Source: Eledone cirrhosa (Eukaryota). Taken from it: DNA of 64,000 bases. The notes beneath the pieces were generated by a model. The model was given only the letters and a program-made list of their open reading frames with translations. It did no database searches and was not told the DNA's origin. The stretch covers positions 121,830,001 to 121,894,000 of the forward strand of contig OZ024741.1 in assembly GCA_964016885.1 (NCBI GenBank), written 5' to 3'. Positions 11,644 through 63,355 of the stretch are shown here, one piece after another (position 1 is the first letter of the stretch; every line of letters starts with the position of its first letter). The position numbers and the translations under genes are program-made.

Positions 11644-11900
11644 TATTCGTTTTTGAATTTGTCAAGCGAGATTTCTTATTTGAAAACGTGTGTTGAAACG
11701 GATATTGTTATACTTTGGGAGGGTCATATTGCCAATAAAGACACACGCACCTGTTGGGTTTCACTTCAATTTATTATAAATTTCCGGTTGGCTGGTTAGT
11801 TTAATAACCAACCGGAAATTTATAATAAATTGAAGTTGTGAAAACGAACAGTTGCGTGTGTTTTTATTGGCAACATGACCCTCCCAAAGTATAACAATAT
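11644..11900. mobile_element. Fold-back element family A, copy 1
   Basis: Inverted arms 11702-11791 / 11808-11900 with terminus ATATTGTTATACTTTGGGAGGGTCA; one-sided tail 11644-11701; abuts (TA)n. Confidence 0.85.
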
Positions 11901-12020
11901 GTATATATATATATATATATATATATATATATATATATATATATATATATATATGTATAACCATATATATATATATATGTATAACAATATATATATATAT
12001 ATATATATATATATATATAT

Positions 12021-14760
12021 AACTTTATGTATGTGTTAGTTGTTTACCGACACCTCAGTATGCAGGTTGGAGCACTCAACGAAGTGCACAGGTTGGGCTG
12101 TTTACTCCAGTAATGTAAAAACAAAAAGTGTAAGTCAACAAGTTAAATTTAGCTTCTTTTATTCATATTCGTTGCTATGTATATTTCGGTGATAACCATT
12201 ATTCAACAGCTATGACCTCATCAGGCAGTTAGAACAGTAAAAAACAAGAAAACATAATGTTGGAATAGATTTTACCTTGTTAATTCGTTGATATGTTCAG
12301 ATCCAGAGTGTAGTGTTAGTCCTCTAAGGAACTGAAAGCATATGATTTAGTATGACCGAATTCCAGCGTCCGAAGGACATGCCCTCACTTCATTGGTCAG
12401 ATATCATATCAGCTCCTTAGCCGGAAGTCTATTGAAATTCTTTCGGTCAGTTCTCCTACAAACAGGTCAGCCTGTTAGAGTTGCTTTTAACTGCATATAT
12501 ATTATGGTCTAGTTGACTTACTGCACTGTAGTGGTAGTGGTAGTGGTGGGAGCAGGTCAGTTATCTGGTCAATTCCAATCCCCCTGTTTTGGTGGTATTC
12601 AGGTTGTCATGGAAGAATTGATGGAGGTAAACTGATATGGGTTCCTCTGGTGGTGTTAGTGCTTCTCCATATCGCTAGGTCTTATAGTGGGAGATGTTAT
12701 AAATGTGTGTGTTAAAACAAACACGTGTTAAAATCTAGAAGTGTTAAGAATTATAATCTGTATTTTAAACATTTAGTACACACCCGCAAACGTCCATCGA
12801 CGTACACCCATACGTGTACACACATATAAAAATAAACATAAGTGCACTCACATATCTACATCTACACATGCACATACATCTGTATACACATATACACGCA
12901 CACACACAAGTACATACATGCTCATATGTGCATACGCATACAAATACACAGACTGATATGTCCCCTCAGTTCGTGGGGAGAGAAGTAATAGGTGTGTCTT
13001 ATTTACTTGTAATAGTTAGTACTGACTCTTGCATGCGAAGGGGTCAGGTTTGAGGTAGCATATCCTTCGGAGAATCGGATCACAGACCGGGGTTCGGTGG
13101 TGAGGTCCGGTGGTCGGAAAAGTGGGGTGTCTGGTTGTACACAGGGTAGGACTCTGCCGTCGTACATCACCTTGCTAAATAGCTAGTGTCTGCTAACTTG
13201 GGTTCGAATTTTGGAAGTGAGAGAGAAAAGTGGACCACAGCGGTGTGAGGCACGGGTCTAGCTGTTAGGTAAGTGTGGCTCGGTGGTGTTATAAATGCTA
13301 TTCGAGACGAAAGGGAGGGGGAGCGGAGGTGTAGGGGTGGGTTTGGTGTCCCGGGGACTCAGTGTGACGAGGTTGCTAGCCATATAGCTTGAGGGAAGTT
13401 CCCGTCCTAATGAGTTGCTATCCATATAGCTTGAGGAAGGTTCCCACCCTAAGGTGTCTACAGGTACCAAAGAAATCGATCCTAAGGTTACGCCCACCTC
13501 TAAGTATCTCCAGAGTCTCACTCAGACAGAGGTGGCAGATGCCAGATCTACCTCCGTCTGGTAGTACCTCCCTAACATTGGACCAGACCAAAGAGTACGG
13601 GGTCTTGTCCAGCTTGAGCTTCCAGATCAGTTGGAAAAAGGCCGTACTTTTCCTTTTGTCTATCCAATTAAAGGAATGGCAGTGGTTATACCATCTGCCC
13701 TTGAAGCTCATCGGGGGTGGCTCCCGTGTAAAGGTGCTCCGAGTTGGGGACTGACACTTTACATCGGTAGACTATGTTCTTCACTAGGCATTCATTTCCA
13801 AGGGGACATAATGTGGAGTTTCTGCAGTTGCATAAAGTGGTCAACCCCTGAATGCTTATTGTAGGGTTCCCATTGTTTAGGTTGGGGTGGTTGATCCCTA
13901 AGACTAGTACAGCCCCCCCCCCCCTGGGTTGGTTGGTGTTCCTCTAGTCAGTCATAGGTCCAACATTTACCCTATCATGGTTCTGCTGGGTGGCTATAGG
14001 ATCGGCTGTTGACTGTCCAAAGGTCATAAGTCTATTCCTATTGATATTAACTATGTGCTGGACTACGCTGCGCGTGGTGGAGTACGAGAGCTTCACCGTG
14101 TGCCTATTGAAGATTTTGTGGTATTTGTGGATCCTCGTGATGCATTTATCCAGTGCCCTAAAGAATGAATGGGCCAGGCTAGTCTTCAGGCCCGCGGAGT
14201 AGGGTGGATTATACCATGTACTTTTTCTTAGTCTATTCCTTTGTGGGAGGGTTGAGCATTCAGCAGGCCATTGGGGAGTTGTTGGGGTGCTACGGCTTCC
14301 CGCACGATTGTTGTCTCTTTGGACATTATGGATTTTGCTAACTGTTCTGACCATAATGATGGGGTTTTTCCTGCCCACACCGGGGGTTCCACATTGGGAT
14401 GTTCCTCCATCCATCCCGGTCTGTATCATGTGATTGGGTCCGGCGTGGTTAATATCACCGCTATATCCGCCTCGGGCACTAAGTTTATTCGCATTCCCAG
14501 GGGTATGTTTCCTTTTCGCAAGCGTGGTGGTGCCACGTTCAGGGAGTTTAGTGGCTTCAACCCTACATGTACTGCTTGGGTTTCCCCTCCTCCGGATACC
14601 GCAGGTCGGAAGGCCCGATAGGCTATATATATCATAGCTCTTCGGGTTATAAGATACAGCCTTACCTAGAGGTGTATTATAATAATCAGCATTATTATCG
14701 AAGATCTCCTTAATTTGCAGACAAGTTGGAGATCCTGTCCAAGACAATCTTGATAATAGA
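12021..14760 (-). mobile_element. 5'-truncated Penelope-like element (Naiad-type linker) with GIY-YIG endonuclease, frameshifted
   Basis: WYNPPYS..HKIFNRHTVKLSYS (13944-14747); CNCRNSTLCPLGNECLVKNIVYRCKV..YTGAT (~13715-13835); FKGRWYNH..CHLCLSE (13418-13711). Long 3' non-coding region with a hammerhead-like motif, ending at (TA)n. Confidence 0.85.
12173..12227 (-). ncRNA. Hammerhead ribozyme-like motif in the PLE 3' region
   Basis: tgc-CTGATGA-ggtcatagc..gttatcacc-GAAA-t-atac-a-TA-gca; stem I is short. Confidence 0.55.
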
Positions 14761-14840
14761 TCTTGTTTATATCATCATCATCACCATCATCATCATCATT
14801 TAACGTCCATATTCCACGCTTGCATGGGTTTGGATATATA

Positions 14841-15521
14841 AACTAGAAATTGATTGACGTATATATATATCTAAAATAAACACATGAAACAATCACAGGG
14901 AATAATTTGTAAAGTGTGTAAGCACACACAGCTAGGTAGGTAACTAATTAAAGTTTAAGTAGAAGTTCAAATATAGATACCTTTTAAAATGATTAATCTT
15001 GTATATATTTCATTAAAGAAATATATTTCACCATTAATCCGTAAAATCACAGTAGTCAAATCAGGATTTTCAACAAGGGGGTAGACTTAAGTATCTGTGT
15101 TTACACAGCAAATGCAAATCTGTGAATGACCTGTCGCACGTATTGCATTTTTAAAAATACACACATCGTACCAGCGTCATCCCAGTGGCGTGAATAGGAT
15201 TATCGACAGCTAGAAATAGCAGCCAAATCCTTTCAACTGAGTTAGCTCTACAATTAAGGGGCCGTATATATATCCAAAATTAAATTAAGGGTGTCATGTC
15301 CGATATTAATTACCTACCTAGCTGTGTGTGCTTACACACTTTACAAATTGTCCCCTGTGATTGTTTCATGTGTTTATTTTAGATATATATATATGTCAAT
15401 CAATTTCTAGTTGATATAAAATGCTTGGATCTATTCATTAGAATCTTTGAGCTTATTCTACGGTGGATATGGCGCATGTCTCTCGGACATGACACCCTTA
15501 ATTTAATTTTGGATATATATA
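14841..15521. repeat. Double inverted-repeat element
   Basis: 14841-14948 is inverted at 15305-15412; 15265-15303 is inverted at 15483-15521. Confidence 0.8.
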
Positions 15522-15526
15522 TATAT

Positions 15527-61957: not shown

Positions 61958-62079
61958 TATATATATATATATATATATATATATATATATATATATATAT
62001 ATATATATATATATATATATATATATATATATATATATATATATATATATATATATATATATATATATATATATATATA

Positions 62080-62601
62080 AAATGATTTACATATAGATAA
62101 AGTCATAGATATATATGTGGCAACCGGTCACGTTGTGGCTCAATGAAGAATTAATAAATTAAATAATCAGAGCAATATATCATAAATCATGTCCTTAGAA
62201 TTATTAGATAAAATATTACAATTTCCTCTCCCAATTAGCATAATTAACCATATAAAAAATCAATTAGACCAGGCTATAAGAATAAAGGCTCCTATGAAGA
62301 AATATTTGATAAATAACCGAAAGCGGCCTCTTCGCGGTGACCCCAATAGAGTATTTATCCAACATTTCAACAGCATGTAGAAACTGACTAAATATACCGT
62401 CAACCATACTCAATTAAGTGTAAATTTAAACTTAGAAGAAACGTGTACATACCGTAATTACATCTCTACCATGGTTTCGTCCGTATTTTTAGGAGCCTTT
62501 ATTCTTATAGCCTGGTCTAATTGATTTTTATATGGTTAATTATGGTAATTGGGAGAAGAAATGGTATATATTTTATCTAATAATTCTAAGGACATGATTT
62601 A
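62080..62601. mobile_element. Fold-back element family I
   Basis: Arms 62183-62293 / 62490-62601; ~100-nt tail 62080-62182; minus-strand hammerhead 3' half GAAA-ccatgg-TA at ~62467-62478; (TA)n flanks. Confidence 0.8.
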
Positions 62602-62676
62602 TTATATATATATATATATATATATATTATAAAATAACAGGAGGCTGGACTGGTGTAAATCCTTGAAAGGTTTATT

Positions 62677-62733
62677 ATACTATGATCATTTCAATGACCG
62701 GGTTCAGTATGAATCCGGTGACATCATCAGGTA
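62677..62733 (-). ncRNA. Hammerhead ribozyme motif, second copy of the 45380 family
   Basis: tac-CTGATGA-tgtcaccgg..ccggtcatt-GAAA-tgatca-TA-gta. The host element 62650-62880 ends in a 25-bp hairpin at 62818-62872. Confidence 0.75.
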
Positions 62734-63308
62734 ATTCAAAATATAACAAAGGCATATAACAGATAAAATCCATGGGGCTGAAAATCAGAGACAAGAGGAC
62801 GACCGACTATTTAGCAGCTTCTACTTCTGTCGGCCGCCCTCAAGTTGTGAGGGCGGCCGACAGAGGTAGAAGACGGGTACTTTTCTAGTATATATACATA
62901 TATACATGTACACACAAACTCACTCACACGCAGGTACACACACACACACACAGACACACACACATATATATATATATACATACATATATATATATATATA
63001 TATATATATATATATTTATATATATATATATGTATGTATATATATATGTATATATATATATGTATATATATATATATATATATATATATATATATATATA
63101 TATATATATATATATATATATATATATATATATATATATATATATAAATATATTTCGTTGACAAATATATCAATATGCCCAGACATATAGATATATTGCC
63201 CTTGGTATGACAGTGTGGTTTTAGCTCAATATAGGATAACTAGTATACTACAGAGCCGTTATAGTTATAGGAATAACCAAAGAGTGCTTAGAGATACATT
63301 TTTTTATT

Positions 63309-63355
63309 AGCTAACAGTGTTTCATCCATACACCATGCCAGGAATCCTCAGAGCC
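63309..63355 (-). ncRNA. Hammerhead ribozyme motif
   Basis: ggct-CTGAGGA-t-tcc..gga-t-GAAA-cactg-TT-agct. Confidence 0.6.

Follow-up and report, generated by a model that had tools for sequence, protein, structure and literature searches.

Hammerhead-bearing fold-back elements at TA microsatellites of Eledone cirrhosa as probable truncated ends of Penelope-like elements

The fold-back elements described here come from one stretch of Eledone cirrhosa DNA, 64,000 nucleotides long and called the window below (assembly GCA_964016885.1, contig OZ024741.1, positions 121,830,001 to 121,894,000; G000:C2:121830001-121894000 in our numbering). The source assembly comprises 3.0 Gb in 1796 contigs. The elements are inverted repeats at (TA)n tracts, most of them with whole or partial hammerhead ribozymes. 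Very probably they are truncated 3' ends of Penelope-like elements (PLEs), namely of coding elements of Hydra and Neptune type and of non-coding units, placed head to head at (TA)n, likely by one reaction that starts two complementary DNAs (cDNAs). The tail, the inverted copy, the hammerheads, the U3-A8 cores and the preference for TA are already in print, and a known class explains the elements; what is new is the families, an unusual abundance and some rules that can be measured. In its TA tracts the window is typical of the genome: (TA)5+ tracts occupy 4.8% of the window and the same share of 60 stretches of 10 kb spaced evenly over the four largest chromosomes. Its repeats are similar to those of octopuses.

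Fold-backs, hammerheads and insertion sites

The window holds 14 fold-back copies of 11 families, two pairs of which are related. The original prediction, made by a model from the sequence of the window, had counted about ten families. Families are called here by the window position of their element, except for family A (elements 11644, 43606 and 51521). The copies are listed below; clade labels are putative and come from protein motifs in longer genomic copies.

11647-11897 (minus): Neptune-type family A fold-back; tail 11647-11704, arms of about 90 bp within 11705-11897; truncated below the ribozyme
18979-20674: Hydra-clade PLE insertion; short-end copy 18979-20118 (minus), which reaches the last codons of the open reading frame (ORF), and long-end copy 20117-20674 (plus) with a tail of about 89 nt; arms 18979-19443/20117-20580, 465 bp, 95%; core CAGAAGA at 20518 (plus) and 19041 (minus)
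20749-20900 (plus): old short fold-back; 11-bp arms, 3' half of a hammerhead
37792-37943 (plus): copy of the 20749 element in a local duplication; 11-bp arms
43119-43521 (plus): fold-back of a non-coding tandem unit of about 519 nt; arms 43119-43260/43297-43438, tail 43439-43521; begins a few bases below the hammerhead of its family
43606-43940 (minus): Neptune-type family A fold-back; arms 43661-43747/43849-43940, tail 43606-43660; decayed core CTCAGGA at 43826 (minus)
45967-46730 (plus): fold-back of a young non-coding 595-nt tandem unit; arms 45969-46102/46428-46561, tail 164 nt; U3-A8 core TTGATAA at 46407 (plus) with mutated GAAA, 3' half in the left arm
46759-47665 (unstranded; the 46757 element): Neptune-type PLE 3' ends, both of them short ends, no tail; arms 46759-47058/47370-47665, last ORF codons in the spacer; cores at 47005 (minus) and 47422 (plus) with imperfect stem I
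48424-49876 (unstranded): near-full non-coding unit of about 1.31 kb with an inverted long-end copy; arms 48502-48658/49720-49876, tail 76 nt; intact hammerheads at 48619 (minus) and 49759 (plus), U.U at the base of stem II
49943-50070 (plus; the 49941 element): very short fold-back of a Hydra-clade PLE with a U3-A8 hammerhead; arm region 49943-49990, tail about 77 nt
51521-51830 (plus): Neptune-type family A; fold-back 51526-51830, tail mostly lost; core CTGACAA at 51667 (plus)
52975-53367 (plus; the 52973 element): Hydra-clade PLE 3' ends; fold-back 52975-53210, tail about 154 nt (168 in most copies); core CCGATGA at 53052 (plus), long stem II
56447-56880 (unstranded): Hydra-clade PLE 3' ends; fold-back 56551-56880, tail 99 nt; doubly variant core CCGTCGA at 56682 (minus) and 56748 (plus)
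62080-62602 (minus): fold-back of a non-coding tandem unit of about 659 nt; arms 62182-62294/62490-62602, tail about 94 nt; 3' half of the family hammerhead near 62469-62490 (minus)

Self-BLAST and a repeat finder confirmed inverted arms of 11-465 bp at the predicted positions. As had been claimed, all 14 copies end at or beside (TA)n, though at the left end of 11644 the tract is just (TA)3, and at the right end of 48424 (CT)n stands ahead of (TA)n. The unmirrored tail on one side, predicted for most elements, was seen in 12 of the 14 copies at about 55-170 nt; it is absent in 46757 and reduced to a remnant of about 10 nt in 51521. The elements 20749 and 37792 are both present, yet they are products of one local duplication and not independent insertions.

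Hammerheads were searched by a type I descriptor of our own (core, GAAA, stem III, UH, stem I), later widened to longer stems and core variants and complemented by reading of the sequence; a stricter first descriptor missed nearly all motifs. The expectation of whole, decayed or half hammerheads in most elements held, 12 of the 14 copies having a whole, variant or half type I motif, and those in arms do read outwards. Only 48424 has an intact hammerhead in both arms. Seven copies (18978, 43606, 45967, 46757, 51521, 52973 and 56447) have a whole motif with a variant or mutated core or a weak stem I, and four (20749, 37792, 49941 and 62080) the 3' half only. None was found by descriptor or reading in 11644 and 43119, both of which are cut off below the ribozyme of their family. 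By family, 10 of 11 have a whole type I hammerhead, and the 20749 family has the 3' half. The cores include U3-A8 (45967, 49941 and others), U4A (18978), U4C (52973 and the neighbouring motif at 50196) and U4C with A6U (56447); in young families they are intact or compensated. In all DNA retrieved, about 30 hammerhead clusters recurred in at least three loci; discounting the two or three that are false leaves about 27 ribozyme families.

The window has five perfect-core motifs, whereas 30 block shuffles had 0.03 on average. In 600 kb spaced evenly over the four largest chromosomes (1.6 Gb) there were 79 matches, and 3, 3 and 3 in shuffles. This corresponds to 130 intact-core hammerheads per Mb (bootstrap 80-190; one array supplies 11), or about 210,000 predicted motifs on the sampled chromosomes and about 390,000 if the smaller chromosomes, which lie outside the sample, are alike. 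The number of predicted self-cutting RNA motifs in the genome is thus likely to be a few hundred thousand. For stems of Neptune type, 48 motifs were picked from 164 gathered by sequence likeness; 94.4% of cells were paired, 44 cells had changed on both sides against a shuffle mean of 16.9, and slid structures paired 19-46%.

One genome search was made per family, and the 30 best loci of 40 scored candidates were kept. These loci, called query-selected below, are biased to copies that cover the query. In them the outer ends of each family are fixed at two sites, a long end, which includes the tail, and a short end, while the inner ends vary in every family; each insertion therefore builds its own fold-back, and the fold-back as such is not what moves. 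Enrichment for (TA)n over random sites, as predicted, was clear: among incidental copies, 62 of 70 in the 18978 family and 70 of 84 in the 49941 family had (TA)3+ at the 3' end, compared with 8.1% of random positions. Among query-selected copies the long end was followed by TA or by the next unit in 22 and 7 of 30 (48424) and in 14 and 16 of 30 (45967), and by either of the two in 21 of 29 (43119), 21 of 30 (family A), 25 of 30 (18978), 30 of 30 (56447) and 30 of 30 (52973). The 265 pairs of fold-back flanks gave no usable case of an empty target site.

Terminal inverted arms, TA on both sides and the lack of coding capacity in most copies would also fit miniature inverted-repeat transposable elements (MITEs) of DNA transposons with TA target duplications, the hammerheads being incidental. 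We regard this as hardly credible. The symmetric inverted termini of fixed length that mark such elements were not what was found: arm length and inner ends differ between copies, tails are one-sided and copies stand head to tail in tandem. The excess of hammerheads over shuffles in the genome sample speaks against it as well, and direct runs into ORFs for a reverse transcriptase (RT) and a GIY-YIG endonuclease are counted as refuting it.

Coding and non-coding families

Eighteen chosen loci were extended to 7 kb. A continuation of the families into a PLE ORF with RT and GIY-YIG, suggested as a check by the original prediction, was found in longer genomic copies for 6 of the 11 families, and the window copies of these six are therefore ordinary 5'-truncated insertions. 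Four of them (18978, 52973, 49941 and 56447) are assigned to the Hydra clade and two (46757 and family A) to a Neptune type. The 18978 family is colinear into the C-terminus of a Hydra-type endonuclease in three loci, one of which, L376, has a pseudo-long terminal repeat (pLTR), ORF and 3' end; window positions 18972-20118 align along it at 90%. In three loci of the 52973 family, too, the sequence continues colinearly into an ORF. For 49941 the order pLTR-ORF-pLTR was found in L372, and 1.15-1.2 kb of the 3' untranslated region (UTR) are common to it and two more loci; for 56447 this order was found in L366 only, with a second locus colinear over 970 nt. The pLTR upstream of the ORF in L376, L372 and L366 is a partial tandem. 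The 46757 family is colinear over 1.7-2.8 kb with an ORF containing RT, a CX2-5CxxC linker and GIY-YIG in four loci, and family A matches the C-terminus of that ORF at 57% (E 3e-29).

The assignment of the four families to Hydra follows motifs: CNCPDRSIC/CNLC/CKH in L372, CNCRDPSLC/CNLC/CRH in L045 and the same CxCX5C, CxxC, CxH pattern in L376 and L366. Of the N-terminal motifs of the clade, RWK and DKT, broken frames of these last two loci showed RWR and DKT. The Neptune-type label is likewise taken from motifs and not from a tree, with CTNRKCIIC ahead of the YIG motif in L369, and the clade is not fixed, because Nematis also has the CX2-5CxxC linker. The ORF of L369 (G000:C2:349695831-349702831) has a long Asn-rich low-complexity insert ahead of RT, and in several Hydra ORFs RT and endonuclease are separated by inserts rich in Pro and Thr. 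Of 7998 matches scored in a protein search, 1665 were relatives of about 700 aa at E<=1e-20; nearly all were unnamed, and many lay on contigs of 2-3 kb. Hydra-type coding matches were present in 10 and Neptune-type ones in 9 of the 60 evenly spaced stretches. The listed families were also considered as the own 3' ends of the top Hydra protein matches; this was rejected, the matches in L037, L054 and L033 being neighbours at TA tracts.

Four families consist of non-coding units in head-to-tail order: 48424 (1257-1317 nt), 45967 (595 nt), 43119 (517-520 nt) and 62080 (659-661 nt). Their longest ORF has 85 aa, and comparison with PLE proteins gave no real match, the single one being at E 0.4. The tandem unit that follows the long end opens with RCTCC-N5-11-GAGC/GAGA, predicted to form a weak hairpin. 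This start motif is shared by three coding Hydra families and all four non-coding ones, and was not found at junctions of Neptune type. From it we consider it likely that the non-coding tandem units borrow a Hydra protein; the link to Hydra rests on this short motif, because the units share no extended sequence with the 7 coding loci compared. A further non-coding tandem unit of about 603 nt, absent from the prediction, lies on the minus strand at window 55389-56214 and 56927-57503; it has a U3-A8 hammerhead at 55755 (minus) with a long stem III and begins with a variant of the shared motif, TTTAGCTC.

The 20749 family had no copy reaching past the ribozyme among its best 30 loci, and no coding partner was found there. 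By eye its element resembles the 49941 family; this kinship rests on reading of the loci, because direct blastn of the window 20749 copy against the end of the 49941 family gave no match.

The original prediction took all families as dedicated non-autonomous or solo-pLTR ribozyme elements, with the fold-back as the mobile unit. The non-coding units of four families agree with that, and most copies of coding families are too short for any ORF to be near. The prediction was right that the elements are no MITEs but products of PLEs, which lie at TA microsatellites and have tails, inverted copies and pLTR hammerheads. Its general claim of non-autonomy fails for the six families that join PLE ORFs, and for the remaining families the mobile fold-back is refuted by centres that differ among copies of one family. 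As an account of the whole set we consider it improbable.

The non-coding tandem units might instead move as circular RNAs, cleaved and ligated by the hammerhead and copied more than once around, as in the retrozyme model. Tandems of the 595-nt unit with up to at least 5 units, an 11-unit array of 310-nt units, and young families with intact or compensated cores are in favour of this, and circles have been shown for retrozymes of coral, mussel and axolotl (PMC7229834, available text). The units here exceed the typical 150-450 nt, and tandems occur in coding PLEs too. We think such circles possible, though somewhat doubtful; the model concerns the template and is compatible with PLE insertion by two cDNAs. 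The array at L426 (G000:C3:190000001-190010000) has at least 11 units of 310 nt with an identical perfect hammerhead in each, a retrozyme-like satellite.

Formation of the inverted pairs, and neighbouring elements

A long end was joined to a short end in 52 of 54 incidental inverted pairs (binomial p 2e-13 against one half) and in 109 of 132 query-selected ones. Self-priming of a single cDNA, or later rearrangement of tandems, could in principle give fold-backs too, and junctions do often lie at short palindromes or microhomologies. Window 37644-37755 is a further point for it, with a centre shortened after insertion: it is a collapsed duplicate, within a local duplication, of the 1.7-kb insertion at 18979-20674, in which the left arm is represented by 26 nt, joined to the tail. 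Palindrome centres can thus be lost after insertion, since this one collapsed after duplication. Snap-back would, however, have to stop at a fixed family-specific point 43-168 nt before the long end in the 52 of 54 pairs, and two start sites have been shown in vitro for PAc, a Poseidon protein of Anolis (PMC11167929, available text). An origin without two cDNAs is in our judgement unlikely.

The 5' ends seldom coincide with the cleavage site. They lay within 2 nt of it in 1 of 73 and 3 of 99 copies; positions 31-60 nt upstream, inside the ribozyme, account for 24 of the 73 and 59 of the 99, and overlapping loci may have led to double counting of some copies. Truncation at the cleavage site was considered for the 49941 family and rejected, the 8 of 30 query-selected copies centred there being explained by query bias and CG microhomology (3 of 99 incidental copies). 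Genome-wide, this family gave 54,367 3' halves and 3,554 5' halves (56 nt upstream), counts made with exact patterns that miss mutated copies and are unequally tolerant for the two halves. Both halves occurred in 9 of the first 100 matches, among which were 18 minus/plus pairs 12-32 nt apart. About nine tenths of its copies stop inside the ribozyme, and palindrome collapse of the kind seen at 37644-37755 may add to the apparent stop.

In the reaction we propose, the RT/GIY-YIG protein would nick both strands of AT-rich DNA, and reverse transcription would begin at two internal sites of the RNA, giving a long end with the tail and a short end; both steps are modelled on the anole protein PAc (PMC11167929). 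Each nicked strand would use a different start site, and both cDNAs would stop early and be joined at short homologies, leaving an inverted pair with a one-sided tail. Since the cleavage site is not where copies end, the template is likely uncleaved RNA. RT is likely halted by the folded ribozyme in some families, and the small hairpin past the long end is a candidate protein-binding element of Hydra elements and their non-coding passengers. The ribozymes themselves would likely cut multimeric transcripts into RNAs of unit length, a step apart from insertion.

Several results weigh against this interpretation. The 46757 element of the window joins two short ends, and 22 query-selected pairs join two long ends. 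The 45967 family reads through the ribozyme (7,496 3' halves, 6,021 5' halves), so that the stop is family-specific. The mechanism is argued from genomic products and from a protein of the Poseidon clade, not of Hydra or Neptune. Rfam included no hammerhead among its 144 window matches at E<=1, mostly microRNA models on simple repeats; it was for this reason that our own descriptor was written. The U4A, U4C and U4C with A6U cores of several families are expected to be slow. Covariation in the stems, also predicted, is present when paired cells are counted, but the pairs with changes on both sides number 4, not above shuffles, and it comes from a few subfamily splits and not from many independent events. 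Pfam matches of the ORFs were below the cut-off (RVT_1 E 0.002, GIY-YIG E 0.018), and in the 7 coding loci tested the non-coding units had no extended sequence in common with them.

Under a bolder joint reading, no genome described so far would be richer in hammerheads than this one, with about 130 intact-core motifs per Mb and several hundred thousand altogether, and its PLE insertions would follow three rules absent from the literature consulted. Every fold-back would arise from a protein dimer that primes one strand long and the other short, and the folded ribozyme would be a near-absolute stop for RT, by which one coding family would give tens of thousands of hairpins of 130-200 nt. The hairpin past the long end would be the cis-element by which unrelated non-coding RNAs hijack Hydra-clade proteins. 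Taken together, these claims are tentative, and we would sooner expect one of them to fail than all to hold.

The six neighbouring hammerheads that had been predicted were all present, with cores at 45384 (plus), 50238 (minus), 58181 (minus), 60662 (minus), 62730 (minus) and 63351 (minus). They are listed here with a further coding element.

12170-14763 (minus): broken, putatively Hydra-clade PLE; RT end and endonuclease 13421-14763, long 3' UTR, hammerhead core at 12224
45384-45436 (plus): hammerhead, U.U at the base of stem II; second copy at 62730 (minus)
50196-50243 (minus): hammerhead, core CCGAAGA
58118-58187 (minus): hammerhead, perfect core
60593-60668 (minus): hammerhead, perfect core
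63309-63355 (minus): hammerhead, perfect core

With an 88-aa piece of the broken PLE as query, a first look at the genome gave 34,255 candidates, whose open frames reach 730 aa. A coding remnant lies upstream of the hammerhead at 50238 (minus). Unlisted elements include a double fold-back at short TA tracts (14835-15521) with a perfect U3-A8 hammerhead at 15073 (minus), two further fold-backs at TA tracts (53474-53646 and 62818-62872), and 61212-61420 with a hammerhead at 61405 (minus) that has one core change; relatives of the latter lie upstream of Hydra ORFs in L032 and L036, with TA tracts between. From their translations we take 7899-10920, 15540-17001, 21012-22800, 22981-31451, 35924-36951, 37981-42214 and 58558-59540 to be remnants of other mobile elements (RT/endonuclease like that of long interspersed elements, or transposase-like); Pfam gave no match for those translations that were tested. 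A 334-aa open frame rich in Ser and Glu at 2179-3183 had no Pfam match.

Comparison with known systems

Earlier work describes, in its available text, PLE insertion units that comprise a pLTR, a tail and an inverted copy, as well as Hydra elements inserted in (TA)n, non-autonomous derivatives of PLEs, and retrozymes (PMC8557442; PMC7229834; bioRxiv 10.64898/2026.07.22.740005). A literature search, with subscription papers mostly outside it, gave no study of the present families, of the rule of long and short ends, or of a hammerhead count for such a genome. For annotation the consequence is that tens of thousands of short palindromes, likely filed by tools as MITEs, short interspersed elements (SINEs) or microRNA hairpins, are PLE ends. 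A curated octopus repeat annotation makes no mention of ribozymes in its main text and has 893 recently active unclassified SINE families (PMC13282606); some of these, we would guess, are PLE ends. Little is understood of how PLEs insert, and the counts from these very abundant young families could be tested directly in an in vitro Hydra system, with regard to two start sites per event, the ribozyme as a stop, and the shared hairpin. Of interest to RNA biology are some 27 ribozyme families of a single genome, with natural variants of the core, and many perfect inverted repeats that would give double-stranded RNA if transcribed.

The Hydra clade, according to Craig et al. (2021), has CxCX5C, CxxC and CxH motifs, (TA)n insertion and hammerheads, and includes Hydra-1_Obim (PMC8557442). 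As far as its accessible text goes, our coding families agree with it in the C-terminal endonuclease motifs, a hammerhead near the 3' end, (TA)n, the pLTR, the adjacent inverted truncated copy and the one-sided tail. They differ in 3' UTRs of 1.2-2.4 kb, with some elements longer than the published <3 kb, in tails of 77-168 nt where 30-40 are published, and in cores of the types U3-A8, U4A, U4C and U4C with A6U, whereas four Hydra hammerheads in the published table are standard. With the Neptune clade the shared characters are RT, the CX2-5CxxC linker and GIY-YIG (L369), the hammerhead in the 3' end and the bias to microsatellites; tails here are 43-57 nt, and the placement follows motifs.

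The closest biochemical system is PAc. This protein was shown to introduce nicks in both strands of AT-rich DNA and to begin cDNA synthesis on uncleaved RNA, at two internal positions by which the tail is defined (Frangieh et al., 2024; PMC11167929). Our elements likewise have two fixed 3' ends defining the tail, AT-rich targets and no sign of cleaved RNA as template. PAc belongs to another clade, and the available text of that study reports neither the rule of long and short ends in inverted pairs nor the stop inside the ribozyme.

Metazoan non-LTR (long terminal repeat) retrozymes are alike in being non-coding tandem units with one type I hammerhead each (Cervera and de la Peña, 2020, PMC7229834; Li et al., bioRxiv), and have been proposed to be moved by PLEs (PMC7229834; bioRxiv 10.64898/2026.07.22.740005). 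The U.U at the base of stem II is also found in axolotl HHR_Amex2 (PMC7229834). Units here are, in contrast, 0.5-1.3 kb, mostly in dispersed short tandems, carry the full PLE signature (two ends, tail, inversion and TA), and are known from DNA. In the accessible literature the largest printed figure seen is up to 120,000 retrozyme copies in axolotl, obtained by another method (PMC7229834).

With the minimal hammerheads of PLEs (Cervera and de la Peña, 2014; PMC4209133, available text) the present motifs share many families per genome, a palindromic loop III, an unpaired base before stem II, the U3-A8 variant and opposite-strand pairs 100-700 bp apart. Natural variants on record include U3-A8, U4C and, at the base of stem II, U.U (PMC3088659; PMC7229834, in part). 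Several families here differ in having a full stem III or a long, branched stem II, and the density is far above the published thousands per genome (PMC4209133).

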